Positions 35,930-61,300 of a stretch of 64,000 bases of DNA are shown in pieces. Position 1 is the stretch's first letter, and every line of letters starts with the position of its first letter. The DNA lies in the IMG/VR virus record IMGVR_UViG_3300011008_000026, positions 1 to 64,000 of that record; one strand, given 5' to 3'. The notes under the pieces are model-generated. The model had not been told where the DNA came from and made no database searches. It was given only the letters and a program-made list of their open reading frames with translations. Both the position numbers and the translations under genes were made by a program. This DNA is from a virus (Duplodnaviria > Caudoviricetes).

Positions 35930-35951
35930 CCATTATGGTGTTTTTCGAATG
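35930..35951 (-). promoter_or_regulatory. Candidate phage late promoter motif CATTCG-N9-ATAATGG upstream of Dit
   Basis: One of four copies (others at about 38653, 59331 and 61266). Confidence 0.5.
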
Positions 35952-35979
35952 GAGAGAAAACTAAATCTAATCGAATCGT

Positions 35980-37722
35980 TTAAAAAGCTAATGCACCCAT
36001 ATTGAAACCTCTGGTAGAAATTTCTTTCTGGAACTGCTTTCCAACCTTCTTTGCGACCGCTCTGATATCTTCATCCGTATTCAGATTGGCCTGAGTAACA
36101 TTTATAATCACGTCTCCGATACTCTGGTTGTAAGTTTGCCCAAGGCTTTCCGGATTCTGCAAGGACATCAACTGAATGTTGATCGAGTTAAGGTAGTCGT
36201 TTAAATCAGCGCTATAATCTTTAATCGCAGTAAGATCGATACTCATCTGATCCATATAGAAGCCAAGCATGTCATAGGTGTCTTGAGCAATCATAAACTC
36301 GGGATCGCCAAGCATTGAAAGTTTAGACGATGAAATGGTACTTGTTTCTCCCGCTTCGTCTATCCCATCAAGAAGTGTCCGTATTAATCTTGTGTCTCCG
36401 GAGCTGAGAAACGCTTCCGGATTTGTTTTCGTTCCGTCAACCCAAGCAGGGCCTGTGAAATCAACTAAGCCACCTTTTTTATAAACTGACATACCTTTCT
36501 TTGCAGTGGTAACCATAGGTGTTACACTTGCGGTAGCTTCATCGGATGTATACCCCTGCTTTTTCAGCAATGAAACTGTAGATGACTTCAAACTATCGAG
36601 ACTTGCGTTCGCTGCATTTTGAGCTTCTGTTTTCGTTTTGAAACCCTTGTTACTGTATGTCCGACCATCAAAAGAGAACGAATAACCATGTTCATCATTT
36701 GTGGTGGTGGTATTAGTGCTTTTATTTCCAGAAGAGCCACTATAACTGGACGAACTTCCGTTTACGTTTATGGTAATTACCGGAACGGAAGTTGTCTCAG
36801 CAGACGCGTTAACATTGTTTGCAAAGTCTGCGGCATAGCTGCCGATAACATGGCTGTACTCATCGTACGGATCGTAGTTCTGAAGTTCAGGATCAACCTG
36901 TTTGGTGCGCTCATAATAATACTTGACTTCACTTGTGTAAAGACCAGTGTCGTATCCTGTACCATTGGCAATTTCTACTTTGTAGGTATAATCCTTCAAA
37001 TCTTCCAGTTTCTCTACGATCTCGTGATTATCAGTCCACTCGGCGTCGTTCTTAGTAGAAGCTTCGAAGTCGTCATACAGTTTTTCCCAATAGGAAATAA
37101 GCGCTTTCTGACCGGCTTCAGAGGCAATCTGATATTCCTGACTCTCTTTCATGAACGCAATAAAGGATTCCTGCGAACGCATTTCTTTGTCAACCTGATC
37201 CCAGTAGGTCTGGACATAACCTTTCATATTATCCCAGGTGTCGCTCCAGCCCTGCTCCATTTGTTTCCGGCTTTCTTCCGATGCGTTTTTATAGGCTTCA
37301 TTATATTGCTTCATCCAGTTCAGGTAATCTTCGAATGACCCGCTCATGATCTTGGAAAGCTCTTCAGAGAAGTTGTTGGAATTTTCCAGCATCTCATTCA
37401 GATCTTCCTCGTAGGCTTCTTCATAGTTGCCGATAGCTTCAATCTGATCGTCTATAATCTGAATAGCGGTATCAGCTTCCTGCTGGGCAATATCCCAGGA
37501 TATCTCCTTTTGAAGATCCGCGATCTGCCTGCGAAGCTCTTTAGCATCCTTTGTACGGGTAGAGTCAGCGGAAATTACGGCAAGCTGACGCTGTAACTCA
37601 GCCAGTTCTTCATACTTATCCGCTTCGTCAATAGCCGACTTCCGGGCATTTAATCTTTCGTTAATCAGACTCTTCTCCTGATTTAACGCTTGCTTCTTCT
37701 TCTCCAGATCTTTCTTCAGTAG
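35980..37722 (-). CDS. Tape measure protein, exon 2 (C-terminal 580 aa)
   Basis: Continues exon 1 in frame (..EWA|LLKKDLEKKK); coiled coil; typical TMP C-terminus YKKGGLVDFTGPAWVDGT..PEAFL. Confidence 0.85.
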   Translation of the reverse strand, partial: LLKKDLEKKKQALNQEKSLINERLNARKSAIDEADKYEELAELQRQLAVISADSTRTKDAKELRRQIADLQKEISWDIAQQEADTAIQIIDDQIEAIGNYEEAYEEDLNEMLENSNNFSEELSKIMSGSFEDYLNWMKQYNEAYKNASEESRKQMEQGWSDTWDNMKGYVQTYWDQVDKEMRSQESFIAFMKESQEYQIASEAGQKALISYWEKLYDDFEASTKNDAEWTDNHEIVEKLEDLKDYTYKVEIANGTGYDTGLYTSEVKYYYERTKQVDPELQNYDPYDEYSHVIGSYAADFANNVNASAETTSVPVITINVNGSSSSYSGSSGNKSTNTTTTNDEHGYSFSFDGRTYSNKGFKTKTEAQNAANASLDSLKSSTVSLLKKQGYTSDEATASVTPMVTTAKKGMSVYKKGGLVDFTGPAWVDGTKTNPEAFLSSGDTRLIRTLLDGIDEAGETSTISSSKLSMLGDPEFMIAQDTYDMLGFYMDQMSIDLTAIKDYSADLNDYLNSINIQLMSLQNPESLGQTYNQSIGDVIINVTQANLNTDEDIRAVAKKVGKQFQKEISTRGFNMGALAF

Positions 37723-38821
37723 CAATTTACGTTAGCACTATTAGGTTGTCATCCTCCGTGCTGTTACACAACAAATTTCCAATGATATCCTCCTGCCGAT
37801 TTTCTTCTTCCTTCGGCGACGGCTTGAATATTTAAGTTTCCCGGCATTGCTTTATTGGCTTCCGTACAACTCGAATAAATTACACCTGTTTCAACGCACA
37901 TAACTGGTCTTGAAACTGCTTTCTTTATCTTTTCTATATGTTCTTCAGATATTGTATGGCCCATATGTGATTTGCTGATTTTTTTTCTCTATACTCTTTA
38001 CTGGATCGTAATCTTCGATATTCGGCGTAAAAGACTGGGTCTTGGAACTGCTTTAATGTTTGCTCTCTTCTTGCTTTTCTGGACTCTTCTTTTTGCAATG
38101 CTTCTTTTACATGCTCAAAGCGGATTTTTGCCTTCTCTGGATTTTCACGATAATGTTTCTTTAGAGACTCGCTTTTCATTTTTGAGTACTCTTCATTGCA
38201 AACCAGCGCCCCATCTCCACCGCAAGTCCAATTATACCCTTTGGCTGAATCCGTAGTATTATAAAGCGCAATATAATATATTTCACGATCATTTATAACA
38301 TCCGGAGTACAAAGCTCTACGATCTCAAATCTAAAGCTATCAGGGCCATATTTATCCCATGCGTTTTGTAAATGCATATTATTATGAATACCTTTTTTTA
38401 ATTTCCAAATATGTAATGCCCATCTTGCTTGAATATCAATTGATCTTCCAATATATCGTTTCCCGTTTACCAAGTTTGTAATAGAATAGACACCGCATTG
38501 CTTCATTGCAATTACTCCTTTTCGTTGTGTAACTCTCATACTTTCGCATGAGTTCAGACTATATCTTACGCACATAAAGTGCGCACCAACCGCTTCGGCA
38601 GAGTGACGAGTTCTGCCTACTCCCAAAGGGGATAGTCGTTGAACCTTACTCTCCATTATGCGTATTTTCGAATGCGCGAATAATGAGGGAGTCTTGGCTG
38701 CTGATTGCCCATTCTAATGCTTGTTATTTTTAAGCGTTCACGTTTGCCTTTTCAGACTGCGTTGTAGCTAGCAAGCCTTTAGGGTGTTCCAGCAATTCGA
38801 TTGGTAGGGCCCTACTGTTTG
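37723..38821 (-). ncRNA. Group I intron in the TMP gene (1,099 nt)
   Basis: 5' exon ends in U with P1 GGGCU/GGCCC; P10 CAGUAG/CUACUG; P AAUUGCUGGAA, Q AAUCAGCAG, R CAACGACUA, S AAGAUAUAGUC; terminal G. Confidence 0.9.
37764..38506 (-). CDS. Intron-encoded GIY-YIG homing endonuclease with NUMOD3/NUMOD1, split by a frameshift at an A8 run
   Basis: GVYSITN..NGKRYIGRS, R...H, E..YI, GYN; C-terminal V.C.ETG..Y.S..EA lies in another frame (37764..37964). Confidence 0.8.
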
Positions 38822-41800
38822 AGCCCACTCATTCTTATATCTGGTTCGAATAACATCAAGCATTGAATCCTGAGCCGAGACCGTCGCTGACAGCATTTCT
38901 TTCTCCAGCTTAATCCGGTTCTTAATTTCTTTATCGATTGCGTTTTCAACCGAAGTCCTGGCTTTGATAATATTATCCGCGTTTGTTTTGATCGCCTGAT
39001 TGTTCTTCTCAATCGCATTGTTAACAGAAGAATATTCTTCTTCCATACTCATGATCTTTTGATTGATCTCATCGTATATGGCAGAACCCGGCTCGACTGT
39101 TTTAAGCTGTTCTTGCAGCCGTTCGATTGTCTCTTCGATAGCCTTGGCTCTTTTCTCCTGAAGCTCTGTTTCGATGTTCAGCATCGTCCCGTAGTTTGTA
39201 AGTTCTCCGGAATTCTGATACTTTGTCTCTTCATACTGAACAAGTTTGATCTGATGCTTTGTAAGATCATCCTGATCTGTAAAATCATCCAGAATGCTCT
39301 GGAATTCAGCTTCCTGAATTTCCTGAACAAGATCATCGTAGGAATTCTGTGTCTGCAACAGGGTTTCCCGAAGACTCATAATCTCAGACTTCAAGGTCTT
39401 CCATTGCGTACTGCCTTCCGTGACACTGCCATCAGTCAGCTTCTCTTCCATTTCAGCGAGACTATCACTTGTTACACCAATGCTTCTGGCCGTAATATCC
39501 AGCTCTTCGTTAAGCATGTTGATGTAATTCGTGTTGTCATTCTGGTTTTTATATCCGGTCGCAGTCAGTTGCGCCATCTTAAGCTCGTGCTCAACATCAG
39601 CAGACTTCTCGTTGTATTTCGTGGTTAACTCCGAAACGATAGACTCTTCAATGGCTTGATCGTTTTCCTGTATTGCCAGAGTTGCAGAAGCAATTGCTTC
39701 TTCGTATTCATAGATTGCGTCACGAGCAGAATACCACGCAGAAGTACCTTCTTCCAGCGAACTCATCTCTTTTTTCATCTCATTCATAGCGTCGCTATAA
39801 AGAGATATCTGAGCGCTGTAATAATCGTTTTGATCGCTTAGCGTGTCACGGTATAAGCCCCACTGTTCTCCGTTTTGATATATGTTCCCCCATGTAGAGA
39901 GCATATTTTGTTCGTGAGTAAGCGGGTCCATCTGGTTTGTCAGATCTGTAGCAATTTGCGAAACGATCGCAGAATTTAACGCTTCCGTATCTTCCAGAGC
40001 CTGATTTTCAAGCTGAGCGTTTTCTTCTTTCAGAGCCCAGATCTTATCCCGGACATCCATCCAGTTCTTGGTACCTTCTTCGTACGTACCGATCAGGTCT
40101 TCCCATTCTTCGAGCTGAGCATTGTTGGTCGCAATATCATTTTGATAGTTTGAAATCTGAAAGCGTGTTGCGACAACATAGCTTTCAAAGTCATTTTGAT
40201 CAAGATAGTTCTGTGCCTTCAGCTGCAACATGGTAGAAGCATGCTGGATAGGGGCATCTTCGTTTGCCTGTTTTGCGGCTACAACAGAGATTTTCTTTCC
40301 GTTGACTTCATCAATGGTATTGGCAACGTCTGCCATAGACTCGTTTGCGGAGTCAATAGCTTCCTGAAGCTTGTACCATTCTGTGGAACCTTCTTCTGTT
40401 GCGTTTCTTTGTGCTACAAGAGCTTCGATATTTGCGTTATATTGATTCCAGAGATTCTGTTGAGCGTCTATTTCCTTATCAATAGCATTAATGTATCCCT
40501 GATAATCATTGGCGCGCTCGTAGTAAGTCTCTTCAGACTGGGCCATGTTTACAAAATGCTGATAGCGTTTAATGTAATGGCTTTGTCCTTCAATCAAAGA
40601 ATCTGCCGCAGAAGTATTGTTCGAGTTTTTATTAGCTTTGGAAGAATCTCGACGAGGCGTATAATTGCTATTTGTTCCAACAACTCTTGGCTTAACAGAA
40701 GTAATTGTGCCGTCTCCGTTTGAGTAAATGTCCCAAAGAATGTCCAATCCCATCTCTTCGGCCATTTCAATCATCTTCTGTTTGTCTTCAGTCAATCGCT
40801 CCCAGAACAGATCTTTAATCTGCTGAGTATCCATCGTAAAAGTGCCGGACGTTACCGAAACATCAACGCCATCTATAATGAGGGGATTTTCACGAACGTA
40901 ATTGGTTAGTATGTCGTTGATGTTTCCGAATGCGCTCTGGAAATCTTCGGTAAGAGCCTCAAGCTGGGCATCTCTATCCTTCTTTGCGGCGTCAAGCATT
41001 TCATCTTGTTTTGTTTTAACGTCATTCTTATAATCATATCCAAGAGAGTTGAAGTAATTCTTGGTTTCTTCATCTACTCTCTTTCCGCTCTCGAACTGTT
41101 TTCGGGAATATTCATCATTGGAGAAATTCTTCATCGAAGTTCTGAGCTTTTTAATTGCTTCGTTTTGATCTGAAACAGTACGATTTGCATTCTTTGTTCG
41201 ATTGATGATAGCTTCAGTTTGTTCTCCCCATGGTTTATAAATTTCTATAAGACCGTCCCGAATATTCTCGTTTAAGTTTTTGATCGTTTCTCCGGTTCCA
41301 TTTAATGTGCCGTTAAGGTCTTTTGAAAGTTCATCGACTTCTTCAAATTGGCCTATCCAATCTTTAAAAGCAGGATCGTCGCCCATCAGGCTTTGCAGTT
41401 CATCGACATTAAGCCCGCCATTGCTGTTTAAAAGATTATTGTATTTTTGATATTGTAATTCATAATTTTGATCTTGCGTAAGTGCGGCTGCGGACGACAG
41501 TTGTTTGAGCGAATTAACCTGCTCTTTTCCAAACTTGTCGTTGTTTGCTTCGGCTTGCTGGAATATATTGGCAACATCAGTATTGCGGTTCAAGAACTTA
41601 GCCCATTCTTCTTCGGTGAAAATAGCTCCTTTATGAGTTCCAACGTACTGTCTGAGCCAAGCTTCTCGTGACATGTCTTCGGTTACGGTGTTGGCAATTT
41701 GATCTATTGACGCAGCGTCCTTAACTGTTTTTGTCCATGTTCCATATTTGTCAATCGCATCTTCCGGAGTTAAGGTTTCTGACCCGCTCTCTAAGGCGTC

Positions 41801-44800
41801 AATTATTCCTTGAATCTTTTCTTTTGCGGCGTCATCAAGACCTTCTGACGCTGTTTTGAGTTCTTCAATGAAAGAAGGCCAGTTTTCTTCTTTTAATTCG
41901 ATTCCAAACGCACTTGACATTTCCGTTCGAACTGTTTCAAGAAGATCGCTAGACTTTTCACGAATCATATCGGCTAGTTTGTCTTTTCCGTCTTCTGTTT
42001 TCAGAACACTTTTTATGTAATCAGAATTTAAACCAAGCGAGGTAGCAAGAAGTTCAATGTTATCATCATCTGTCAGATCTCCTGACCAGGCATTGTTTGC
42101 CATAGCAAGTTTGGAACGCTCACTGTAAAAGCCAGCTGCAACAGATGCTGCCTCAGCCTTTCCGCCTTCTCTTAGGTCGGTGATGTTCTTAGCAATCTCA
42201 GAAGCATTTTGTGCAATATTTCTATCTTCGCTTAATTGGAGCGACTTCTCTAAATCCGATTGCGCTCCTTCGATAACAGCTTTATCAATTTCCGCCTGCG
42301 CCTTTGCCAGTTGCGCATCCAACTCATCCTGAGAATAGCTTCCGGCTTCCTTCATTCGGATATATTCCGTCGCCTGTTCTCCCATTTTGCCGGCAGCCTG
42401 AGTATATAAAGCGTTTTCTTCTGTGTTTTTACTTGTCAGATCTCCTGTTAAAATGCGCCCCTGTGCTTCGGCAAGTTCAGTGGACGTAAAGAGTTCTGTG
42501 GCATTATAGAAAGGATTGCTACGGTCAACTTCAGTTGAAGATCCCATATAATACGCTTTGCCTTTATATATACGATATCCATTTTCACGAGCTTCAGCCT
42601 TTATACGGCGCCGCTCTTCATCGTTTTCTGCTGCCGCATAACGATCGGCATAAGTTCCGGCTTGCTGATCTGTAAGAATCTTAAACTGCTGATTGGCTTC
42701 TGCCCGTGCTGCTTCGTAGTCATTCTGAATACGGGCATCATCCCAGCCAGTCAGTTCCTTGATCATTTCATACTGCTCGCTCTTGGTCCCGTTGTTTAAC
42801 TTCGCTCCGATCTGAGCATTTGAATGCGCTTTATTGGCAAGCTCAAGCTCGGCTTTAATCTTAAGATTGCCGCCCTTCTTGATATTTTCAATTGCAGAGG
42901 CAGTTCCTTCCAGAACTTCGCCAAGTTCTTCAGCCTGTTTAATTCCATCAATCGTTAATTTAATATCCGCATTTCTCTCGAATATCTCAAGTTGAGCGTT
43001 ATACTGTTCAAGAAGTTCAAGATCTCTCTCGGATAACTTTTCGCCATTTTGCTGTTTTTGCACAAGCGCTGAATACTCGTTCCATCCGGAAAAGTCTGAC
43101 ATGTACTGGGCCGCAACTGTCGAGTCGTAAGAAGAAAGGCCACCGTTGCGAATTTTATCAATAACTTCTTTCTGTCCGTTATATTTGTCTGTAGAAGTTA
43201 AACCTTTAACGCCATATCTGCTGCTGTCGATTAAACGCCTTGCATACTTAACCTGTTCATCAGTCGCGTTCTGAGAAAGGAGAGACGTTAAAAGGTCTTC
43301 GTCTCCGACAATTTCTTTCAGATAGGCACGTTCATTATCATCCAGCACGGTGCTTCCTGCCGCCCATTGCTTAAATGTCTGTGGGCTGTAATACTTCTTA
43401 ACGGCATCTATTGCCTGCTGTGGCGCTCCCTGCTTTGTCAGGAAGTCTATCTGAGTCTGTTTCTCATCAGCGATATACTGATCATATTCCTGCATTCTTG
43501 CAGTTTCAGAGTAGAAAACCCGATTGTCCTTATTAAGTAAACTGTCGAGCGCAGACGTCGCAATGTCTGCTTTTTGACCTTTTGTCAGCGTGCTCTTTCC
43601 GATAGACGATTTGCCTGCAATCCAGTTGAGAAGAGCAAGATAGGTGCCTTCATCTTCAAATTTTACTTCTCCGTTTTCTACAACTGCTCCGCTTAGAATG
43701 TTAGCGAGTTCGCCGTTCTTCTCGTCAGTCCTGAGAAGATTTACAAGAAGCTGCTGACCTTCAGTTCCCGTTTGAGCCAGGAAGTCTTTATATGAAGAAA
43801 TCTCTTTCCCCTGAATAAGATCGTTGAACTGATCGGCATATGTCTTCTGCTGATTGGCAGTAGCATATGTCTGAGATCCAGTAGTGACAAGAGGGGAAAC
43901 AATATCTTGATAGGCGGTAAAAATGATTTTGTTAATCTTATTTTGAATTTCTTCCTGGATTGTCTTTATGTCTTCGACAATGTCATACGAATCGGCAAAC
44001 ACTTCTGGCGAATCAGGAACATTATCTTCTATCTCAGAAATCAAATCGTCTGCGAGCGCAATTGTATAATCATTGACCGCACGAACTGTTCCTTCAGAAA
44101 TCTCTCCATATACAGTTAAAACCGCAGCTTGCCATGTTTCATCGATACCGTTTTCGTTAATTACAGGCTTTCCGTCAGGCTCCATGCTCGAAAGAGTTTG
44201 ATAGACTTCAACGATTTCTTGCATTTTCTCATCGGAAATATTATCGGACTTATACGGAGATATTTCACTAATTTTTGGAGCTTCTACTGGTAAAACCTCT
44301 GCAGAAACGTTGTTGAACGCGCCTTCGTATTCTTTAACAGCTTCTTGCCATGCCAAGTCATTTTCACTTTTATCTACAGCGATTTGTCCGTGTCCTTTGC
44401 TATGTTCTGCGACAAGACTCCAATAAAATCCTTCGCGAGCATCTTCCAGCATTTCCCATTCGTCTTCCAAGGATTCCACAAGAATTTCGTAATCGTCACT
44501 TTCCTGCTTTTCTCCGTTGTGATCGATGTAATAATACATGCCTTTAACAGCATCAATCTCCGCTTGAGCAGCTTTTTTGCCTTCTTCGTTAACACCAAGA
44601 AGGGTTTCGCCCATCCAATACTGAACTTCATTCAGTTTGTCTCGCCATGCCTGAAGTCCTTCTTCGCCAATACCATAACTCATGCCGGTATTGGCATCCC
44701 GATAATCTGTTAAACTGCTGACGTAACTCTCGGCCTGTTCCCGTCCTTCTTCTTCGGAAAAGGTTTTAACGATTTGGCCTTCGCTGTCTAACACAACATA

Positions 44801-47800
44801 TTTGTTTTCTGAAATCTCTCTATTTCGTTTTGCGTCCAATAGAGTTTTTGCATACATTGGATCGGTCGGACTGATTTGCCGAAGTTCTTTGCTGGCTTCT
44901 TTTATCGCTTCATTTTCTTTATTGTGCGCATGCAGTATTCCATCTGAATCTTCATAAAATAAGAAATCAGAAAAACCTAGCACATCTCTTGCAAATCTTG
45001 CTGCTTCGTTCTTGTCTCTGCCAGCCGCATATGTAAATGACCCAGGATGAATATCTTCAGCTCTTTGTGTTTCGTCTCCGAATAATCCATGATAAGTATA
45101 CGAATATTTGTCACGATTCTCATCTTTAAAATCGCTTATCGTCTGATCTCTTAAATGAATGCTTTCAGAATGTAATGCTTCAGCTTCGGCGTTAGCAGCT
45201 TCCCATGTTTCAAATTCATCTTCCAGAACTTCACCTGTTCGTTTATTCTTTAACGTATAAGTCGCCTTAGTAGTTTCGATAATTGTCGGCTTCTCGGCTT
45301 CATTCTGTTTGTCAGCAATGGCCTTTGCTTCTTCGTAGGAATATCTCTTTCCGTCTGACCCGATATAATACGTTCCAGCTCCAAGATATTCTAGGCCAGC
45401 GTCAGCAGCCTGTTGCTCAACGGTTTCCTGCTTTTTTTGTTGACGATAATCTACCAATGTATTGTCAATGTTTTGTTGATAATTACCGTCTGTTCCAAAT
45501 ATGCTATTGTAAGCATCGGTTTTCCCGTTTGTAACATATACTCCAGCGTATTTGCCTGCCAGATAATCTATTTCATCTGAAGTATATCTTCCACCGAGAA
45601 TAGAACTATCACTGGCCCACTCTATAAAAGACGCTTTCGCGCTATCGTAAACCGCCGTAGGAGCAGAATCATATCCCGAACTGTTTAAATAATTAAAAGC
45701 TGCTTCAAGTTCTTGCTGTGTTACAACTCCATCGGATAGCCGCTTCGCCCATGCGTCTTTGGTGATACCGGTTGGATCGCTTTCAAAATCGTCCATTTTG
45801 CCAGCCAAGGCTGCGCTATACAACAAACTACTTAACGGGTCTTTTAAATCATTTGAAAAGCTTATTGTGCTTCCCCCGAGCGCTCCTGAAATAGCTCCGC
45901 CTAAGCCCCAGAATCTGTCGTTAACTTTTCCTGCTTCAATCTGGGAATTCATGGCACGCAAAGCGTTAGAATACATTTTGTATTCTTTAGCATCTTCATC
46001 AAAATACCATAAAATATTATTAAACAGAGGATTGGAAATATCTACTTCTTTACTTGCGGTTTCAACTTTTGAGGAAATACCTTTATCAATTGCATCTATA
46101 GAATCACCTCTGGTACCCGTCATGTGGCTTTCCCATAGTTGATTCTTTTTCTCATCCGCTTCTTTGATGACATTATCAGCCGCTTCGTCTGCTGTTCCAG
46201 ATAGTTCTTTTAACGAATCCGTTAATGTATCAATGCTATAAATTGTATCTTTGGCAGAAGAATCAGTTAAACCAAGCGATACTGCAAATTTATTTATTAA
46301 ATTTGCGTATTCTTTATTTTCTTCCGATGTTCTGTTTTTTGTATTCCTTAATTCGGTCAAACGATCGATTCCGTTGAAGCGTGTTTCGTATGCTTCTTTA
46401 TACTGCGTATTGCTCGTGCTAACTCTTTGCTCGGCTGTAGTTGATTTTCCAACATTATCAAGAGCAAGAGCAGAAACGCCAGCTATTCCGAGTCCTATTA
46501 CAATGCCGGGAAGACTTCCGCTCTTCAAACCCGCCATTATAGCGGCTATGGGAATCAGCGCAGATAAAACTCCCGGTAAAGAACCGGCAGAGGTAACAAT
46601 ATTGTTAATACCTTGAACAATGCGGGTCAAACCATCTACAAAACTTGTCGCAAGTCCTGATTTAATAACATCCTGAACAAGCCCGTCAAATGTGTTTTTC
46701 AGATTGTCTAAGGAAGCCTGAACACTTTCAACATAGACGTCGTATTTCTTATCTGTAATTCCATCCGCCTGATCCAGAAGATCAAGATACTTGTCGATTT
46801 CTCCTTCCTTAATACCAGTCATAATGGCACTAAAGTTAGAGAATTGACGAGTGCCGGCAATAGCCGTTGCAAGCTGTCTCTGCTCGTCATCACTCATCGT
46901 ATCATACTTCTGAGCCAGATCATACAGTAAATCAAAAGAAGATCTTCTTGAACCGTCGGAATTATTTGTTTGTATTCCATGGGAACGGAGCAGTGTCGCT
47001 ACGGCAGAACCACTTATGGTGTTGCCATTCTCATCTGTGATGATCTCTTTGGTTCCGACCTTATTCATCCGGCCGAAAATAGAGTTCAAGGTTGTACCAG
47101 CAACATTACCTGTTACCTGTGTCGTTGCAGTTACAGCAGTAAGCAAGGCGACGAGCTGTCCATAGGTTGTTCCGTCTATTGCGGCGGCCGCACCGGACTT
47201 TTCAATTCCCTTTTCAATCTGGGCGGCATTGGTAGCGGCACTGTCACCTAACATGGTAACAACATCAGCTGCATACTGCGCATCGTCTACCAGTCCAGTA
47301 TTAAGGGCGGTTGTAATCAGCTTGGTTGCGTCAGTTGCTTTTGTACCAGAAACTTTGGAGAACTTGGCAATTGTATCAAGCCGTTCTTCCATCTCTTCGT
47401 CAGAAAGACCCTGACGATAGAGCTCCGTACTCATCTGAGCAATTTCAGAGAAAGAGATCTTGAGTTCCTTGGCCTTGTCAATCAGACCTTGTCCAAGCGT
47501 TTCCATTTCAGAGTTACTCTTCAGAGTAATCATCTGAATATTGGTAAGTGTCTTATCGTATTCCTTGACGAACCGCTTAACTTCTTGAAGTATCTTGTTG
47601 AAGATTTGTCTGCCAAATCTGGTGGCGAGCATACTGATCGTATTGCCAAACTGAACAGAAGCGGCGTTTGCAATGCCGAAAGGCCCTGACAGCTTAGCAA
47701 TCTGAGATCCGGCACGTTCTGATGCAGCTTCCAAATCTCTTAATTCGGCAGCAGTCTTATCGTAATCCTTATCGCCTTCTCCTTTTCCTTTTTCAACCAT

Positions 47801-50800
47801 TTCGTTAAGGCGATTCTGTACTGTATATTTTTGAGCATCTACTTTTACTTTATAATTCTGCCAGCCGCTAAGAGCGGAGTCTCTTGATTGTATAGCACGT
47901 CCAATAAATCCACGATTCATGCCGTAGGTTGACCTTGTCAGCTGGTCCCCCTGCCGCATAAGCTGGTCATGCTGAAAATCTCTGGACTGAGATCGAAGCG
48001 CTATGCTTTCATCTGTATGTGCTTTAAATTCCTTTTGTTCGGCTTTTAACCTTTCCAGGTCAGCACTAAGTCTTTTAGCTCCATCCGCATATTCTTGGCG
48101 GGTTTGTTTGCTATAAGATTGGTCTCTGGCCATATCATTAAGCTTTTGCAGTTCTTTTTCTACTTCAGCGATTTTTTCTCTCCACTTTTCAAGTGCTTCG
48201 ATTTGGGGATCATAGGTTCCTGCAATTTTGTCATTAGCCGTGGAGAGACTTTCAATCATACTCTTGGATCCAGCCAAAGAATAATTCATGAAATCCCGGC
48301 CGGCCATAGAGGAAAGAGTATTATCACCTTTAACGAATCTGAGTAGTTCGGATTGTTGCTCGTCGCTTAATGTATCAAATTGACTTGATTTAACAAATTC
48401 GTTAATTCGTTTTTCGTAACCACGTGCAATACCTGTATTTACTTCCAAACGCCTGATTGCGGCAGGTGTTTCTTTAACCTTTGCAATGGAAGATAAATTA
48501 CCGGAATACAGTTGTTTAGAAAATTCGGTACTTCCTTGAATCAGCTGCGCAAAACGATCTTGGGCTAGTTGCCTGAACTCCGGATCCGCCATCATCCCGC
48601 CAGGTCCGGAAGGTCCACTGGGCGGATTGTTTGGCGGAGAAGGAGAAGAAGGAGGATTGTTACCCGTGTTATTTTGGCCTGTCTGATTACCGAGTACAAC
48701 AGGAACATTGTTTGTTGTTGTGTTGTGATTGGCTGCATTCGGGCATTGAGATAAAGATGCATCATATTCAATGCCACAAATCGGACACTTCTTTTTCGGT
48801 GTTTTACCTGAAGAAGTTCCCCCGCCTTGTCCGGTTTGTCCATTTGTGGTGGTTTGACTTCCGGATGCGGCAGGCGTTGCAGAAGCATTATTCGTTTGTG
48901 TTTTATGATTAGCCGCATTGGGGCATTCTGGAAGATTATGATCATACCAAGTGCCACAAATAGGGCATTTTGTTCTCGGGGGAATAGTCCAAGGTTCACG
49001 AGAGTCATAGAATGGAATATCTTCCATGCCCGGTTCTTCTTCAAATCTGCCTCTAATTCTCAGTATCTGACTTGCCGATTTAACTTGCGATCCTCTTCCC
49101 CTTGCTAACGTATAATGCTTTTTGATTGAGCTATCACTTTCCGTTGTAATATTTGGGATGGCTTCAGTTGCAACCAAAGCTTCTTTCTCTTTTTCTTCCT
49201 GCGTTTTCTGTGCAACTTTCCACCCCAACTCTGGCTTGGATGAAGGTTGATAATTTACATATTGACTGCCTTGTAATAATGCGATTGCCTTTTCTGCGGA
49301 AACTTGTCCAACTCCATTAGTTACTAATTGCTGCCAATTTCCAGAAGAGACAGCTGCGGCGACAGTCTCTCTTGGTAAATTCAGAATTGCATCAATTTGA
49401 GAATCATTTAATTTTCTGCCGGACGCAGGCTTTTGCGACAATAAATCACGAGCTTCATCTTTTGCCGTCTTCTGAACTTGATTTGCTACTTCAGCTTTTG
49501 CTTCAGCCGCCTTCTGTTCTTCTTTCGCCTGTTCCTGTTTTGCATCAGTTGCTTTTTGAGCAGCTTCTTCAGCCTTTGTTTCAAGAGCCGTATCAGGAAC
49601 TTTGTCTGTTGTTGTAACCTGTACGCTTTTTTCGCGTACATCCTTTAATACTTCATCGGCCTTTAACTTTTGCGCTTCAATTTCTGCTTGCGCAGCAGCT
49701 TCTTCTGCTTTGACCTGCTCTTGAGTCTGAACAATCTTTTTTCTTTTCGGTTTCGTTTCCTTTGGTTTTGGCTGTTCTACAATCTGTTCTGCCGCTGGCT
49801 CTTCGACTTGTGGCGCTTTAGATGCTGTAATTCTGGAATACAGCATAGAAGGATCAACGCCTAAAGAAGCGGCAAGCTTTTCAGCGGATGCTTTTCTCTC
49901 CGAATCACTTTCTATTGCACGCTGAGTATATGAATAGTTACTAATTTGCTCAGCTACCATCAGACCGGCAGCTTTACGTCTCTTTGCATATTCATCGTCG
50001 AGATTAAAATATTCACCATTCTTTTGCTTTTGCTTTTGTTCTTTTTTCAAATCAGCCCAGATTTCTTCGTCTGCAAGCCTTTTTTGCGCGAGTATAGCAT
50101 CTTCATCTTCCTGAGAAAGAGCAATAAAATCTCCATTTAATAAGCCTGCTTTCGCCTGACGAAGCATCATAGTAAGTTTGTAGGCTTCAGTTCCTTCTCG
50201 TTCCGATGTTGGCATGTTCTTTGAATCGAGAATTGTATTCCAGTCATAGAGAGAATTGCCGTGTATATCGTGACCATTGATTTCAAGACCCTGCTGTTTA
50301 AGCTTACTTCTTTGACGAAGTGTTCCAAGAACCGCACCGTTGGTTAATGTCGGAAGATTAACTTCGTCGAGTCTTCTTTTGTTAAATTTTTCTTGTGCTG
50401 CCTGATCCCATACATATCCGGATTCGTCATTAGCGCCTTTTGTAGTAACATCTTTAGCGGCCCATTCGAAAATTCTTGCAAAAGAACGACCAAAAGAAGA
50501 TGCACTTGTTTGTTCTTCTGTCTGCGCCCATTTTTCTGCTGTTTTTAAGTGAGTAGAAACAACATCATATTGATCTTCGTGGTCCAACAGAGCCTGAGCA
50601 AATTCAGGATTAATCTCGCCATTTCTATTATAAAGAGCCGCAATAATATCTGTAGCTCTATCTGCTTGACCCATCATGGGACTGGTTACGCCGACACCAA
50701 ACATATAATCAATGAGGTCATCCATGCTGTCCAGTTTCCATGTTTTATCAGGGTTGTCCGGTAGACTTAGTGTGCGATTCTCTTTTCGCGCTTTTTGATT

Positions 50801-53800
50801 TTTCCGAACGTATGCTATTTTTTGTTCATCGGTCCATTTTGACGCATCAGGGAATTGTTCTTCAGGGTGTTTCTTTGCCTTTTCCTGCATATTGTCAAAG
50901 GCTGCCAGAAGAATGCCGTTAACTTGCTTGGTCGCTTCCTCGTTCAACAATCCCATTACCTGTGCGAAATCTTTTTTGTCCGTGCTGGATAAATTATCAA
51001 TGTTGAACATTGTGGACAGATCAAACTGACCTGTTTTATCACCATCGAAATCCATTCCCTGTAGGAATCCAAGAATTGGAGATACGGGATTAAAATAAAT
51101 GCCTTTCTCATCCAGCCCGCGATTTGACATAGATTTACGGATGGCAGCACCAACAGTAGACCGCCCGCCGCCTACCACATCATTGCTGTTCCAAAGGTTT
51201 TTTGCCTTTATGTTACCGCTTAAGGTTGCGGGAAATCGAACAAGGGAAAGAAATTTTGAATTGGATTTAGCAGAGACAACGTCGTTTTCTCCAAGATGCA
51301 GCTTTCTCTGCAAAGGTGTTAACTGTTGTCCGTTACGAACAAACATTTCATTAAGTACATTCTGCGCCCATGGGGCCGCCATGCCATAAGACATGACGCC
51401 TGTTGGCATCAATCTGTCACCTTCAGTATATCGCTGAAGCATATTGTCGATATGATCCTGCTTTTTCTTTCTGGCTTCTTCAGAATTTAAATCAATTGTT
51501 TGATCTCCGCCAAAGATAACATCGCGGGCATATTGTTCGTCGTCAAGATGCGCTATTTCTTTTTGCAGAATATTTGCAAAATAGGCTTCAATATCTTCTC
51601 TTTGAAACGCTCCTGCAAGCTGTCCGTTCACAATTTGTTTGGACAGCCACCGAGAAGAAGTACCAGCACCATCGTATGTTGTTTTAGCATATATATGGTG
51701 TCTGGAATAATCTCTGGAACGCCGATCATTTAACTGTGCCTGAGTCAGATCATTTCCTTGGTCGTCTTTAAATATAGCCTTATTTTTAATATTGTCATCA
51801 ACTTCAAGAAAATCAGTGTCCCAAGGTACAATAAGATCACTGCGCCAAACGACATTGCCCTTTTCGTCTTTTCTGACGTCCATTCCGGCTCCGGGAATAA
51901 CAAAATCGCCATATTGCATCATAATGCTCTGAACCATCTTGTTGCGCTTACGTCCGCGAATAGATGGATCGATTGCGGCAATTTTAGCTCTTGTGATATC
52001 ATTGTCTATGATCTGGTCAGGATTATCGCGTTTCATCCCAATCAAATCTTGCTTAACAAACGTGGCTTTTCCGCCGTAAACACGTCCCTGGAAGCTCTCC
52101 TGAACACCCTTGTTAAATGCCCAGTTTGCGCCGTCCATCAACTTGATTGCATCTTTCCCTTCGCCTGTAGCAAAGTGCCCGACAACAACCTTCATATTAG
52201 GTTTGCCGAGCTGTTCCATGATACGCTTCTCTTGCTGAGGATGAGTGAGTTCACCGCTTGCCTTTTTTTCCGCAATTTTCTTTTCCGCTTCCGGAGTGCT
52301 TTCAAAACCAAAGTTCATTCCCCAATAGGAACTTAGGTCTTCGCCATCTGTAGCTAACAGATTCATATTGTAAGCGGCTTTTGCAAAATCTTTACGGCTG
52401 GAAAATTCATTTCCGGCCCCATTCCGAAGTAATTTTAAACCAGCAGCCCGAATTTCATCAGAATATGGAGCGTCAGGCGCCAAACCAAGCTCATAGCGGC
52501 CTAGATCGTCTACGATTGAAGCCTTCATAAATTCTGTATGAGTTTTGCTTACACGAGTTGCGATATAAGGTGTATTATTAACTTCATAGCCGTTAGTTAG
52601 ACGTTCCTTTAATTCCGCCTTCAGCTTTGCTTTTTCTTTCTCGGGCAAATATTGATTCGCAAGACGCTCGTCGTGTTTTAGATAGATCATGTTGTCGTCA
52701 AAGTCATTATGCCCGGCTTTAGAAGCAGAAGGCATAGAATGAACAAGATCCATCAGCATGCTGCCGTTCATTCCGATAGTATGAAAATCATCGGGTGAAA
52801 TGGAAAGCTGTCCATTTTTTGCAGATGCTCTTTGCGGTCCGTGAATATGTGGAAATGCTGTCCATGTGCCATTAATGTTTTTAACGGGACTTATTCCGGT
52901 TATTTGGACATTTTGCGCCATCATATCCAGCGCATATTCAGCAAAGCCACGGTTTACTTCATGGGGCAAGTGATTTATTTGCCCGACATATCGTTTTTTC
53001 GGAGAAGTATTAGGATCAAACTGGGGAGCCTGATCCATCCTATAGTATCCCGGATTGTACCAGCTAAAACTTTCATCCATAGAACGTGCTGTTCTAAGTT
53101 CGCTATCTAAAGTTTTATTATGTCCAATCTTTCGGGAAATATTCGGCCGGTTGTCCGGATCTTCGACATCATGCGTTCCGTATCTGTAGTGGCCACGTGC
53201 ACCGGTGACAATGCCGCTAAAATTAATACCACCCATGGCATTAACCATATCGCGTGTGGCTTCGTTGTTGTAATACAGTTTGCCCTGACTTCTTCCATAT
53301 ACACCGGCAGCAACAGCAGCATCTGCGGCAAGATGATCTTTTTGAACAATTTTATCCAGCTTGGCCTGTTCTTCTCTTGTCAGTTTCGTGTTTCCGTCTG
53401 GCGTGCTTCCAAATGTACGAAGTTCTTCCTTTTTTGTTGGACGTCGAACGGGGATGGTCCGATAAGACGCGGGTACCATTTCACGGAAGGATTCAGGAGC
53501 CGCCCTAAAAACGACGTTTGAATTGCCTGCTACGTCACTCCGCATGGATTGCGGAAGTAAAATTGGCATCTGGCTTTTAATATAAGCAGACATAACGCTG
53601 GTTTTAGCGGCTTGAGGGTTTACAGATTTAATCTGCGCCTGTAAAGATTTCCCTTCTGAACTGGATATGAAAGCTTTTAGCAGCTCATCGTCAGAAAGCA
53701 TACTGCTTTTTTTGATTCCCTTCGAAGCCTGAGCCGAAGCTTGTGCAGTGGCCCTTGTCGCAACGGTAAGAAGGGATTTTTTTATTTTATCAGCAAAGCT

Positions 53801-54187
53801 AACGAGAGTATTTGTAATTGCAGGAGTAATATCTTTGGCAAAGTCCTGTGTATTGGAAACTGATTTTTGAATATCCTGAATTGTCTTGTCTGCCATTTCG
53901 ACTTTGCGTCTGTAGACTGCTGTCAAATCTGCCCGTTCAATTGAATTTGAGGCATTGTCGATTGCGTTTCTGGCTCGAACAATATCGGTCAGACTTGAAA
54001 TCCAGTGATCATATTTTGTTTTGATTGCTTCACCGTATCCGGAAAGACCCGTTCCCTGAGCCATGGGGACAAGAGAAGAAGCCTTCTCCTGCAGGCTGGT
54101 GATCTTACTTTCGATCTCTTCTGCTTTCTGGTTAAAGGGATCATCGTTAATATCGACACCTAAACTTAAAATTTCATTTTCATCCAT
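38822..54187 (-). CDS. Giant tape measure protein, exon 1 (5,122 codons), with N-terminal two-barrel RNA-polymerase-like domain
   Basis: TMP core (EYDKTLTNIQMIT..AKELK....EI......YRQG; GTTLNSIFGR; AGTRQ) at about 47570-46700; long coiled coils; DFDGD at 51052-51038; position between chaperones and Dit. Confidence 0.85.
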
Positions 54188-56143: not shown

Positions 56144-56153
56144 GTCTATGGCG

Positions 56154-56516: not shown

Positions 56517-56526
56517 TTTGATCTCC

Positions 56527-56685: not shown

Positions 56686-56690
56686 AAGGA

Positions 56691-57161
56691 TCACTCCTTG
56701 CGACGTTTAAAGAACTTTGGCTTCTGTTCAGGCACAACACCCAGAACAACTGTCGGCTCTTCAAGCTTCTTCAATGCTTCGTCAATTTCTTTGTTGGTAA
56801 TGGGCGTTCCTTCCAGTACGGAATCAATAACTTTCTCGTCGGCCTTTTCTTCAGCCGCAGGCTCTGCTTCAACTGCCTTCGGCGCATCGTCAGCCGAATA
56901 GGGGTTTGCCGCTTCTAATTGAGCCAGCTCTTTAATAAATCTTTCCATCCGGACTCTGGAAACCCGATAGTCGATTCCGCCCTTATTCCACTTCTGGAGG
57001 GCTCTCTTCGCCTTAAAGAAAAGTCCATGTTCCAGAGTATCGCTCTTAAAGGGATTTGTGTCCTCTTTTCCGAGCCATTCGACCGCAATGCCGACGGCTT
57101 CATTTTCCTTGTTATTCTTATGGTAGTCCATAAAAGAATCATATAATTCTCTGCAATCCAT
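56691..57161 (-). CDS. Hypothetical protein
   Basis: ORF with AAAGGAG RBS. Confidence 0.6.
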   Translation of the reverse strand: MDCRELYDSFMDYHKNNKENEAVGIAVEWLGKEDTNPFKSDTLEHGLFFKAKRALQKWNKGGIDYRVSRVRMERFIKELAQLEAANPYSADDAPKAVEAEPAAEEKADEKVIDSVLEGTPITNKEIDEALKKLEEPTVVLGVVPEQKPKFFKRRKE

Positions 57162-57186
57162 GTTGGTTCTCCTTTCGTGTTATATA

Positions 57187-57582
57187 TCAACCAAGATAGT
57201 CTTCGAACCAGCTCGTGTCTCCAAGCTGATCCTGAACCTTCTTCATTTGCTGTTCCTTTGACCCGGACTTGATAACTGTCATACTGCTTGGCATTGCCAT
57301 CAGTACAGATGCGCTGTTGGAAGTGCTCGGCTTCGTCAGCGGGTTAGCCTGGTCAACCATTCTGTTAATGCTTTCTCCGGCCTTCTTGTCCAAGACAGTC
57401 CGGCCAAGCATATTGATAACAGTTTCATAGTTCAGCTTCTTTCCAAGTGCGTCCAGCACACTCTGGAAAAAGACATATGTCATATGGTTTATTTTCTCTT
57501 CGTCGACTTCGCCCAAGTGAACCGCTACTGCGGCAACCGCTTCATCCAGATTTAACGACTCCCTTGGGCTTGCTGATTTTTT
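57187..57582 (-). CDS. Tail assembly chaperone, -1 frameshift extension (gpGT-like)
   Basis: -1 frame is open from slippery A AAA AAT (57582-57576) into LGEVDEEKINHMTY.. Confidence 0.7.
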   Translation of the reverse strand, partial: KKSASPRESLNLDEAVAAVAVHLGEVDEEKINHMTYVFFQSVLDALGKKLNYETVINMLGRTVLDKKAGESINRMVDQANPLTKPSTSNSASVLMAMPSSMTVIKSGSKEQQMKKVQDQLGDTSWFEDYLG

Positions 57583-58166
57583 CTTGCTTGTTCCTCTTTT
57601 TCGTCGATATGATTAATTCGACCGAAGATCTTCACAATCCGGTCAACATCGTCGGCAGTCATTTCATCATAATGATCCCGAACGAACTCCGAACTGTCGA
57701 AGACAGCAACAAGAAAATCGTACAGCATCTCATCAGGACTGCGGTTTCCCAGCACGCCCTTTTGATAAGTGAAAAACGTAGTAAGAGGGATGGCTTTGAT
57801 AAAGTTATACGAAGACACAGCCTGATTTCTGAAATATCTGAGCTGAGTCGGCTTGATCTCGATTGGCTCGTTCTTAATAAAAACAACGTTCTCCATATTC
57901 AGTCCGGACGGTAGCTCTGTCTTCTGAGGAGTTTCTTCCGGAGTATTTTCAACAAATGGAGTCTCTTCCGGAGCTCCCTTCATGACCGGGGATGCTTCCG
58001 GAGTCTTATCAATTGCATCGCTCTGTGTTGGTTTTGTTTCCAGCTGAGAAGTCTCTTTCGGGACTTCTTCATTCAGAGGAAGATTATCAGGCAGAGCAGA
58101 TACAGGTTCGGTTTCCTTCGGAACATCCTTCCTGAGTCTCGTAGGAAACGGGATTTGCTTTGGCAT
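57552..58166 (-). CDS. Tail assembly chaperone (gpG-like)
   Basis: Directly after the major tail protein; ends in ..ARKN with a slippery site; start at MPKQ. Confidence 0.7.
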   Translation of the reverse strand: MPKQIPFPTRLRKDVPKETEPVSALPDNLPLNEEVPKETSQLETKPTQSDAIDKTPEASPVMKGAPEETPFVENTPEETPQKTELPSGLNMENVVFIKNEPIEIKPTQLRYFRNQAVSSYNFIKAIPLTTFFTYQKGVLGNRSPDEMLYDFLVAVFDSSEFVRDHYDEMTADDVDRIVKIFGRINHIDEKEEQARKNQQAQGSR

Positions 58167-58219
58167 TGTTCCTTCTCCCTTCAAATATATAATGCTTTTG
58201 TGTGGGCGCAAAAGCAAAT

Positions 58220-58251
58220 AAAAAGGGGATACCGTTATTCGCGGTATCCCC
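58220..58251 (-). terminator. Intrinsic terminator after the major tail protein gene
   Basis: GGGGATACCG-7 nt-CGGTATCCCC followed by TTTTTATTT on the minus strand. Confidence 0.8.
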
Positions 58252-58376
58252 TGAATGTGCATTGGAACGTCTTCCCTTACAGGAATCCGTTTATCACACA
58301 TAAAACACGTATGAATACGTGCGTGATAATATCTCCGCTAATAACCTTTTTAAACCTTATATAACCAAGATATTAA

Positions 58377-61300
58377 TCATCCATTCTGCTTTGCTTTTTC
58401 AATGTAAGCAGTGCTGTAGCAGCCGCCGTCGTTCCGCTTCGCATCCCAAAATATGTTCAGCATGAGTCGTTAATTCATGCCCGCTCTGTTTTGAGCAGCT
58501 CTATGTCACCATAGAAGTTCAGACTATATCACGAACTCTCTTAAAGAGTCCCTCTTCATTTCGGGCCACTTGGCCCTACTCTACTCACTCGATTTTAATC
58601 GGCTTTCGATAGTCGTTAGGCTTTTATTCACACACACGTTCAAATTTAAAACCTTTGCAAAGTCTGTTTTCCTTAATTGATGCAAAAATAGCTTCTGAAG
58701 AACATCCCACAGATCGTCCTGCAGCCGCACCACTACGAAACACTTCCCCAGTGTCGATATTACGAACAGCAACATGCATGGAGTTTAGATTACCTTTACG
58801 TGCCTCTGAAAATTTAGCTTTTTGCAATTCTGTTAAAGGCCCCGTTTTTAATCCTTTATTCCACGCTCTCTGTCCCATGTGCCCTTCAGATAGATGTTTT
58901 CGATATTCTTCAGATCTATGTTGTGCATTATATTTCATTTTCTGTTTTGTTTCTTCAGCCATTATTGAGCCGTAATGAGCTGGTTCTGAATCATACAAAT
59001 TATATCCGTATTCTTGTTTATTTGAATGAAATGATTGAATGTAACATTTTTCAAGCTCGATACTTTCCTCGTAAGTCAAGTTATCTGCAAGAATTTCTAA
59101 TGTGAAATTATTCCATCCGTATTTGCAAATAGCATGCCAAAACTTTGTACATTCTTTATAGTTGTTTCCATTTTTACCAGCTCTGTTTTTAATCGTTTGC
59201 ATAGTTCTTCCTATATACACCTTATTGTTTATTACATTGGTGTATTTATAAACCACATTCTTTTTCATCGAATCTCCTTTGTGTAATTTTATGTGTGTGA
59301 AATTTAGCACGGGATTGTCTCTTCTCCTCCCCATTATGGTATTTTTCGAATGCGGAGAATTATATTTTATCAAATACAAATACAGAGAGTTTCCCCGTTT
59401 AGAAGAGTTTTTCAATGCCTCTCGCAAGGCAAAGCCTCAGATAAATATTTAAGGCAGTAAGTGTCAGCTGGAAGCTGGCAGCGCTCTTATCTTAAATGAT
59501 AAAAGTCATTTTGTTTATTCACTATTGTTCGCTACGCAATAGCCGCTTTCGCAGCTGCATGTCACCATGCAGAATAGACTATATCTTCACCCTGTAAAAC
59601 AGGGGCTCTTCTTTTCGGATCGCTTGATCCTACTCTACTCGCTTCTTCAGGCTTTCGCCCTATGCTTTCGATAGTCGTTAGGCATTTACAAGCATTCGCT
59701 TGATTTAGCACGGGATTGTCTGCTTGAGAGTTTCCCCGTTTAGAAGAGTTTGTTCATGCTTATTACTAAGCAGCCTCCCTAAGAGTCGCTAAGGAGGTAT
59801 CGAAGCCGGGAGCGGTTGTAATCCGAGCCCGGAAGACCTTAACCACATAGTAGCCGATAATATCGGACTCTGTGCAGTCATCGCCGTTGCCATACACCGG
59901 CCAAATGCAAGCAGCCTGTCCAATAGCAGAGCTCTTGTTGTCGATGATGGCTTCCATGGCTTCCTGCTCATAATCGTACACGACCTCGATGATCTTCAGA
60001 TTATCCGCAGCGGCAAAGGTGATCACGGTCTTCTGCTCATCACCCGTGCCAGAGGTTGCAACCTTATACTCACCTGCGCTGGGAGTAGTCTCGGTTGTCT
60101 CTTCCATGCCGGAAATGTAGATGGTTCCATCCACGGCCACATGGTCCAGTGTGACGGTGTGGTCATTCTTCACTTCATAGCGCTCGGAAGTCGCCAGTGT
60201 GTACGTCTCTTCTCCGTCGCCACCGCGATGAACATAGTCAACACGGTTCGCCATGGAGAACAGTTCGGCATCAAATTGACCACTCGTAATTGTCATCTCG
60301 AAAGAAGACTGTCCGGGCAGCACAGCCACAGGATACATGCTCCAACCCGCGTTAATAGGGGTTGTTTCAATGTTGGGGGTAACAGTCGCGGCAGTCAGCT
60401 CATCGAACGCGAAACGCTTACCGTCGCAGCGATCGAAGATGACCTTCGGCACGTCGGCGATATCATTATATGTTCAATGCAATTCGCTAGATTGCATCCG
60501 TCTTTCGACAGCTATATGTCTCCATATAGATCAGATCATATCTTCACCCTAAATAATAGGGGCACACCGTTTCAGCCCGCTTGGGCTTACGTCTTTCGAC
60601 TGATCGTTAGGCTTTTAAACATATTTCCAATGAGGGCCACGGTTTCTTGAAGGAGCATTCAAATGATTTCTGCGAGCTGAATTACCAATCTGCCCAACAG
60701 TCCAACCTGTCTTTTCAGAAGCTTCAGCAACAGATGCATAGATAAAGCCTGTTTCAATACACATTACTTTTCTTCCTCTGGCAAGTCTGTTGCCTCTGCT
60801 AATCGCGGCCTTTGTTTCATCGCTTTGTCGTGTTCCTCTGTGAGCAGCAGCAGTCTTTTCTATTGCTTCTCGTGTAATAACCTGCCTTGCTCTTGCTTCT
60901 TTGATTTTTCTTCTTGCTTCATCAGATCTTGGCCCTTGATTTACACCGCCAGGTTCTTGGTTATAACCGTTATCAATTGTGTCGAACAATTTAATAAGCA
61001 AAGATTCTGTATGGCTTGCTTCTTGTTGTGTAAGATTTTTTGCAAAAATAAAATGTTCAAATGAATTCCATCCGTATTTCTGAATAGCGTGATAGAACTT
61101 TACACAACCACGATAATTTATTCCTTTTGAACCCCAGCGATGTTTTGGATACTGTTCAGATGTAACACCAACATACATTTTGCCATTTGCTTTATTAATG
61201 TGCACATAAACAGTCCATTTTCCATTTTCAATTACCATAATATATCTCCTTGTCTTTTTGTTTCTCCATTATGGTATTTTCGAATGCGAAGAAATAGATT

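Follow-up and report, generated by a model that had tools for sequence, protein, structure and literature searches.

A repeated non-coding motif in an uncultured tailed phage and its relatives is a probable phage-private promoter and may be read by a YonO-type RNA polymerase

We analysed a 64,000-nt stretch of the tailed-phage (Caudoviricetes) record IMGVR_UViG_3300011008_000026 (hereafter the window, which covers the first 64 kb of G000, an IMG/VR contig of 94.5 kb with an estimated completeness of 67%) for a short repeated motif, CATTCG-N8/9-ATAATGG, and for the genes that it accompanies. A preliminary description had reported four copies on the minus strand, and we recovered these four at exactly the same positions (35951-35930, 38674-38653, 59352-59331 and 61286-61266), while 100 dinucleotide-preserving shuffles gave 0 matches. 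Alignment of the copies showed that the conserved unit is longer than first described, spanning ~38 nt, TTTTCTCCGCATTCGAAAAATACCATAATGGAGAGAGA, with conservation that reaches ~10 nt upstream and ~8 nt downstream of the original pattern. The four copies, here called s1 to s4, lie among tail genes and in the group I introns that interrupt them; the features of this region are given below, where bit scores of motif copies come from a sequence-only model built from a 40-nt alignment of the copies.

34737..35840, minus strand: Dit-like distal tail gene, downstream of s1, with a weak Sipho_tail match
35912..35932, minus strand: hairpin GGAGAG/CTTTCC, starting at the GG right after the ATAAT of s1
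35923..35960, minus strand: motif copy s1 (42.2 bits), with orthologous copies before the Dit-like gene in the related genomes G005 and G006
37934..38506, minus strand: GIY-YIG endonuclease open reading frame (ORF) of the tape-measure intron (Pfam GIY-YIG, E = 2.4e-9)
38535..38875, minus strand: core of the tape-measure group I intron, P1 to P9.0 (Rfam RF00028, 67.4 bits, gathering score 50)
38646..38683, minus strand: motif copy s2 (36.9 bits), in the P6 loop (an insertion in the P6 hairpin) of the tape-measure intron
51038..51052, minus strand: DFDGD, in the tape measure ORF (5139 aa, 38768-54187), within its N-terminal part, conserved in G005
58624..59268, minus strand: GIY-YIG/NUMOD3 endonuclease ORF after s3, in L6, with a likely start at ATG 59268 after AAAGGAG
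59326..59360, minus strand: motif copy s3 (42.9 bits), in the P5 loop of the third tail-tube intron
59555..59801, minus strand: ORF-less group I intron (Rfam, 71.8 bits), with no match to the motif model
60615..61238, minus strand: GIY-YIG/NUMOD3 endonuclease ORF after s4 (Pfam GIY-YIG, E = 7e-6)
61259..61295, minus strand: motif copy s4 (40.1 bits), in the P6 loop of the first tail-tube intron, beside its ORF
73918, minus strand: motif copy s5, outside the window, at the head of the late operon

The model was run on the whole contig and found exactly seven copies (37–50 bits), with nothing more up to E = 10. The three copies beyond the window were also recovered by a fuzzy search, at 73918 on the minus strand (s5, slightly degenerate) and at 83749 (s6) and 84663 (s7) on the plus strand. 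A mismatch-tolerant census of 12-mers placed the motif as the top-ranked repeated non-coding word of the contig. Every one of the seven copies is non-coding, upstream of local genes and co-oriented with them, and the motif is real, non-random and functionally constrained. Megablast of window regions against GenBank phages gave no useful match.

Copy s1 follows the stop codon of the second tape-measure exon (35980) and precedes the likely true start of the Dit-like gene (ATG 35840, preceded by AAAGGAGG). Just downstream of s5 are a 190-aa gene, a 309-aa gene, the large terminase and the portal, such that this copy stands at the head of a long minus-strand structural operon that extends down through the window. 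Both s6 and s7 are on the plus-strand arm of the contig, where a tRNA-Thr begins 271 nt after s7. At s1, s2 and s3 the ATG of ATAATGG shares the frame of the ORF that follows, at s4, s6 and s7 it is out of frame, and s5 lacks it; this ATG was rejected as a start codon, as the true starts lie 30–150 nt further downstream with strong Shine-Dalgarno sequences.

Positional conservation was assessed in relatives. Scanning IMG/VR twice for the exact pattern gave 13 contigs that carry the extended motif, and six relatives (G001 to G006) were taken whole, including a complete genome with terminal repeats (G005, 150.8 kb) and one that is 92% complete (G006). Both are syntenic with G000, at protein identities of 35–75% and with nucleotide similarity essentially nil, and four classes of non-intron sites were common to the three genomes:

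Head of the late operon: s5 in G000; 39192, minus strand, in G005; 94284, minus strand, in G006
Before the Dit-like gene: s1 in G000; 5529, minus strand, in G005; 62408, minus strand, in G006
Border of s6: s6 in G000; 46837, plus strand, in G005; 102779, plus strand, in G006
Border of s7: s7 in G000; 47496, plus strand, in G005; 110443, plus strand, in G006

A fifth class was found in five relatives (G001, G002, G003, G005 and G006), where the motif lies 60–170 nt upstream of a yonO orthologue, and is not on G000, an incomplete contig. In G005 this orthologue is followed by genes for a primase-helicase, a PD-(D/E)XK nuclease and PolIII-alpha. A tRNA-Gln lies 91 nt downstream of the G005 site of the s7 class, and a tRNA suspected right after the G006 110461 site was not confirmed by the search. 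All copies in G005 (6/6) and G006 (7/7) were non-coding, upstream of the genes they would serve and co-oriented with them. The motif had initially been proposed as a late promoter, which proved too narrow a class, as in the relatives it heads the yonO/primase-helicase/PolIII-alpha module and precedes tRNA genes. The core that is invariant across the clade is TTTCGAAAA-N4-YATAAK-GG(A/G), and the nine bases upstream of it are lineage-specific (TTCTCCGCA in G000, TTCTCCSGT in G005 and TTGAAGCCT in G006). Taken across these genomes, the motif behaves as a phage-private promoter serving structural, tRNA, replication and intron-endonuclease genes.

We then considered which polymerase could read such a signal. 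A sigma-A promoter was rejected on spacer length, the missing −7 T and the result of a promoter scanner. The sole −35-like register gives a spacer of 15 nt, inside which lie the most invariant bases of the motif (TTTCGAAAA). The sixth base of the hexamer (−7 T) is replaced by A or G at 7/7 sites in G006 and is also missing at s5 and at two G003 sites, and the scanner reported no sigma-70-type sites at s1, s6 or s7. A phage sigma factor had been put forward as a possible reader, and none was found: Sigma70_r2 was nil at E ≤ 0.1 in six-frame searches of G000, G006 and the complete G005, with a positive control that was found in 10 genomes. The same six-frame searches returned no T7-type polymerase, a weak negative since the T7 control gave no match. 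RdRP-family (two-barrel) genes were found in G005 and G006, and RdRP-family/YonO-type polymerases were the sole recognisable transcription enzymes in G000, G005 and G006.

The G005 protein encoded behind the fifth site class (942 aa) shares 33% identity with SPbeta YonO along 92% of its length (E = 2e-112) and, judged by this similarity, is a true YonO orthologue. A YonO paralogue of 859 aa in the same genome passes the Pfam RdRP threshold, and its positional counterpart in G000 is a 1013-aa ORF (76922-79963) that aligned to a YonO-like profile over the RxP...DVDGD region (hhalign probability 95.8%, E = 6.6e-9), which supports the presence of a free-standing YonO-like polymerase in G000. This ORF had no pairwise BLASTP match to the tape-measure N-terminus and no match among PDB sequences, and a PDB sequence search with the 522-aa YonO-like N-terminal ORF of G003 was likewise empty. 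The preliminary description had also pointed to a polymerase borne by the tape measure. The N-terminus of that protein carries DFDGD and showed no homology to the YonO profile (hhalign), Pfam or PDB sequences. The DFDGD domain is a candidate virion polymerase, and, to judge from P23-45, an enzyme tethered to the tail would be a less likely reader of promoters that stand before structural genes.

Intrinsic terminators, with stems of −12 to −25 kcal/mol followed by T6–T8, were found 50–110 nt upstream of the motif at six sites in two classes, the s6 class in three genomes (G000, G005 and G006) and the yonO class in three genomes; they were not seen at late-operon or Dit sites. These strong terminators argue that transcription restarts at the motif at s6- and yonO-class sites. 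When RNA was folded from the GG after ATAAT, a hairpin began at the first or second base at 9/19 non-intron sites, compared to 16% of 1474 GGAGA control sites (P ~0.0015), and this signal was maximal at offset 0 and dropped on both sides. The stems differ in sequence between orthologous sites, and the Dit site of G006 also has a GG-started hairpin (−26.6 kcal/mol) of another sequence than that at s1. At two homologous genes (G005 85311 and G003 22546) the GGAG of the motif serves as the ribosome site, 7–9 nt before the ATG, and must therefore be within the RNA. Together, the enrichment of GG-started hairpins and the use of GGAG as a ribosome site point to an RNA start at, or very close to, the GG after ATAAT.

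The analysis shows the sequence of the motif, its copy number, orientation and positional conservation, the terminator-then-motif order, an architecture unlike that of sigma-A promoters and YonO-type genes in these genomes; promoter activity, the start site and the reading polymerase we infer. On this basis we lean, by no great measure, towards the motif being the promoter of a YonO-type phage polymerase that starts at the GG, and not of the host sigma-A holoenzyme.

Palindromes adjoin the motif on its upstream side at many sites, namely in the window at 59363-59377 (s3) and 61296-61310 (s4), in G005 at 46837, 47496, 66401 and 85311 (all plus strand), in G003 and G004, and in G006 at 2366, 102779 and 110443 (plus strand) and 82182 (minus strand). 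The sequence is ATTTGATNAAAT in most lineages (G005, G003, G004, s3 and s4) and TTCGGTACCGAA or TTAGGTGCCTAA in G006, and the sites s1, s5, s6, s7 and those of G001 have no adjoining palindrome. By their form, these palindromes look like operators for a dimeric regulator.

Such operators would also fit the alternative that survives best, which we nevertheless judge unlikely, that is, a promoter to which an activator of the phage, or a sigma-like factor that escaped recognition, redirects the host RNA polymerase, with YATAAT as the −10 element and the upstream part and palindromes as the activator site. CATAAT has five of the six bases of TATAAT, yet the −7 T is missing throughout G006, the spacer is 15 nt long with no usable −35, and the scanner found no sigma-70-type site. 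Late genes of phage P23-45 are transcribed by modified host polymerase, which sets a precedent, whereas Sigma70_r2 is lacking from the complete relative and the palindromes of dimeric-regulator type (ATTTGATNAAAT, or TTCGGTACCGAA in G006), present just upstream of many sites, are lacking at s1, s5, s6, s7 and in G001.

We consider improbable, and more so than a redirected host polymerase, that the motif acts in the RNA as a leader or processing element (a GGAG-masking hairpin, a nuclease site or an antitermination site) with transcription starting further upstream, for example at a TGnTAAAAT-like sequence in the palindrome. GGAGAG resembles a Shine-Dalgarno sequence and the flanks TTTTCTCC and GGAGAGAG are complementary in G000, in line with the self-complementarity first described at Dit, but a hairpin across the motif was not conserved across copies: 61.8% of cells were paired compared to 61.3% in shuffles, covariation was not above controls, and the hairpin was absent in G006. 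A structured RNA or ribozyme part was also rejected, as there was no conserved covarying pairing and the copies lie in different intron loops. The sequence TTTGATAAAAT upstream of several copies resembles an extended −10, although many sites have no upstream −10-like sequence. The motif moreover precedes tRNA genes and comes after terminators, and a single-stranded core of 20 invariant nt would be unusual for elements of this kind.

The intron copies bear on how the signal spread. As first proposed, three copies (s2, s3 and s4) are in group I introns upstream of the GIY-YIG ORFs and none is in the ORF-less intron (59801-59555), the latter borne out by the model search. The tape-measure intron extends 3' of its core with the endonuclease ORF, whose likely start (ATG 38506, after AAAGGAG) follows P9.0 and lies 148 nt past the GG of s2. 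A partial Rfam match spans P4-P6 around s3, and at s4 the endonuclease start codon comes 29 nt after the motif. Rfam alignments and sequence placed the motif in differing peripheral loops (L6 for s2, L5 for s3 and L6 for s4), always upstream of the endonuclease ORF, and this, together with the conserved borders outside introns, upholds the earlier view of a DNA-level signal over a ribozyme element. G005 has no tail-tube introns and no motif copy there, and G006 and G004 have one intron copy each. Since the non-intron borders are positionally conserved in relatives that lack introns there, the introns borrowed a pre-existing phage signal; by this comparison the non-intron sites appear to be ancestral and the introns to have acquired the signal.

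That the motif is instead a termination signal or a DNA site of another enzyme (an endonuclease target, a recombination site or the end of a mobile cassette) at gene borders is very improbable, for although the non-intron copies all lie between co-oriented genes, which also fits an end-of-unit signal, termination sites of the P23-45 virion polymerase carry a conserved 26-nt motif and hairpins follow s6 and s1, a terminator inside introns would truncate the tail-tube and tape-measure messages with loss of essential exons, canonical terminators are already present 50–110 nt upstream of several copies, the GGAG is the ribosome site of the next gene at two loci, and a mobile-cassette end predicts the opposite of positionally ancient non-intron copies and variable intron copies.

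Returning to a promoter read by a YonO-type enzyme, the signal would consist of the clade core, taken here as TTTCGAAAA-N4-YATAAK-GGAG, and the lineage-specific 9-nt block, with an operator-like palindrome further upstream at many sites. Transcription would most likely start at the invariant GG that immediately follows ATAAT, or beside it, a start-abutting layout that is that of single-chain phage polymerase promoters, and the reader would most likely be one of the phage's own YonO-type two-barrel RNA polymerases. The signal would head the packaging and structural operon, restart transcription before the Dit-like gene, drive the tRNA region and, in relatives, drive the yonO/replication module. 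Three mobile group I introns would hold a copy in a dispensable loop upstream of the GIY-YIG gene, such that the endonuclease may be transcribed on its own and on the phage's schedule. In this full form (a cognate YonO-type promoter with a GG start abutting YATAAT, a block that sets specificity in each lineage and palindromic operators at some sites, copied by introns that time their endonucleases) the proposal is tentative, and we would place it somewhat short of an even chance.

Several observations weigh against a YonO-type promoter. The motif was absent from SPbeta, Perkons and D-1873 and from 72 bacterial YonO loci (812 kb in total), which leaves the link to YonO as one of co-occurrence in a single clade; such absence is expected if promoters co-evolve with their enzyme, and gives no positive support. 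The motif also precedes the yonO orthologue itself, which implies that the first YonO is made by another enzyme or that the reader is the other paralogue. With only 6–7 copies per ~150-kb genome, the motif cannot explain all transcription. The nearest relative by nucleotide, G004 (46.8 kb), has only an intron copy and none before Dit, and a second GIY-YIG group I intron in its tail-tube gene (12051-12140) has a plain P5 hairpin and no motif, so an own promoter is not obligatory for these endonucleases. Directly after s6 (genome 83769-83815) there is a hairpin with a T7 run that resembles an intrinsic terminator, which might be an attenuator or a structure ignored by the phage polymerase. Lastly, a divergent sigma factor or activator could escape a Pfam search.

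Phage-private promoters, and endonucleases that borrow them, are already known; the novelty here lies in the motif's sequence and in the family of the enzyme that probably reads it. The widespread family of single-chain two-barrel RNA polymerases found in Bacillota phages and prophages has YonO as its founding member, and if our reading is true, the motif would be the first sequence-defined promoter for this enzyme family. It offers a concrete template for YonO transcription and reporter assays, and a means of marking out transcription units across a large group of uncultured rumen/gut-type phages. The copies in introns would then be a second, independent case of homing endonucleases borrowing a private promoter of the phage, extending the T4 paradigm to a different polymerase system.

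Other features were observed around the yonO orthologues and elsewhere in these genomes. In G005 the terminator, motif and yonO orthologue come directly after a reverse transcriptase gene (64986-66122, plus strand; RVT_1, E = 6.5e-20). The orthologue is interrupted in G001 and G002 by ~1 kb that follows residue 386 and contains P4/P6 sequence resembling group I introns (G001 11930-12925), and in G003 after residue 522 (42400-42520), followed by an endonuclease-like ORF. The late-operon leader of ~140 nt (genome 73760-73890 after s5; G005 39100-39170) holds repeated TGCATG / TTATTGCA words in both genomes, which are possibly a further regulatory site. In the window, positions 15040-16480 (minus strand), within an 814-aa ORF (14764-17208), contain at least 14 repeat copies with the word TCATGCNGAAGG at a spacing of multiples of 42 nt, so that a gene of the tail module encodes a repetitive stretch of protein.

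A second repeated element, CGGGTGAGG-ATTTGCA-CCTCACATG, occurs in the relatives, in a region missing from G000, always on one strand:

G005, minus strand: 54553, 95025, 102872, 103034, 106249, 106459 and 113626
G006, minus strand: 115561 and 115940

Its loop is invariant and its stem changes are compensatory (GTGAGG/CCTCAC, GTGGGG/CCCCAC, GTAAGG/CCTTAC and GAAAGG/CCTTTC), and the hairpin could be an N4-type hairpin promoter, a terminator or an RNA element.

Among known systems, SPbeta is the closest in its enzyme. One YonO-dependent start was mapped there in front of yonK, where the late operon begins, in a study that left the promoter sequence and possible cofactors of YonO to be defined (Forrest et al. 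2017, PMC5467207); our literature search found no later paper defining a YonO promoter sequence. The clade studied here has a true YonO orthologue and an SPbeta/c-st-like terminase, and the motif heads the packaging and structural operon much as YonO starts the SPbeta late operon upstream of yonK. SPbeta differs in having one such start, compared to 6–7 in this clade, and in lacking the motif; the gap between yonN and yonK contains instead a tandem 24-nt pair, TCG-N2-TAAT-N2-TCATTTATGARGG:

SPbeta (NC_001884), minus strand: 60434-60457 and 60591-60614, unique in the SPbeta genome
phi3T (locus L069): 8704 and 8861, in the yonN-yonK gap

The second SPbeta copy falls inside the published P_YonO primer-extension amplicon, as placed by primer positions, and the layout of the repeat (TCG, an A/T-rich stretch, CAT, an A/T run and a G-rich end) is loosely like that of the G000 motif. 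We regard the tandem repeat as a candidate SPbeta YonO promoter, that is, as a lead and not a match.

In P23-45 the promoter of the virion polymerase, TTATTCCTTTA, abuts mapped start sites (Chaban et al. 2024, PMC10770324). The two systems share short, strongly conserved phage-private motifs, directly upstream of starts that were mapped in P23-45 only, and a giant tape measure with DFDGD alongside a free-standing two-barrel polymerase. The P23-45 promoter sequences (TTATTCCTTTA and GGTCTAGGGGCTTT) are unrelated to the G000 motif and serve pre-early and early genes, with late RNA made by the host polymerase (PMC10770324), whereas the motif of the present clade stands before structural, tRNA, replication and endonuclease genes and the tape-measure polymerase of this phage is a candidate.

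Promoters of T7, T3 and SP6 are unrelated in sequence, and a T7-type polymerase gene was not detected here in a search whose control gave no match. The likeness is one of layout, with a contiguous block of ~20–40 bp that runs into a purine-rich start (GGGAGA compared to GGAGAG), a lineage-specific upstream block and transcripts that often have a hairpin at the 5' end.

In T4, the host core polymerase with gp55 reads the late promoter TATAAATA, and I-TevI to I-TevIII are reportedly driven by late and middle promoters that lie within the td, nrdB and nrdD (sunY) introns (Gott et al. 1988). The signal here differs, being a 38-nt non-sigma-A motif in place of TATAAATA, and its copies lie in L5 or L6, where at s2 and s3 a portion of the ribozyme core intervenes between motif and ORF. 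In both systems, homing endonuclease ORFs looped out of introns carry the stage-specific promoter of the phage, which here would likewise make their transcription independent of the interrupted gene.

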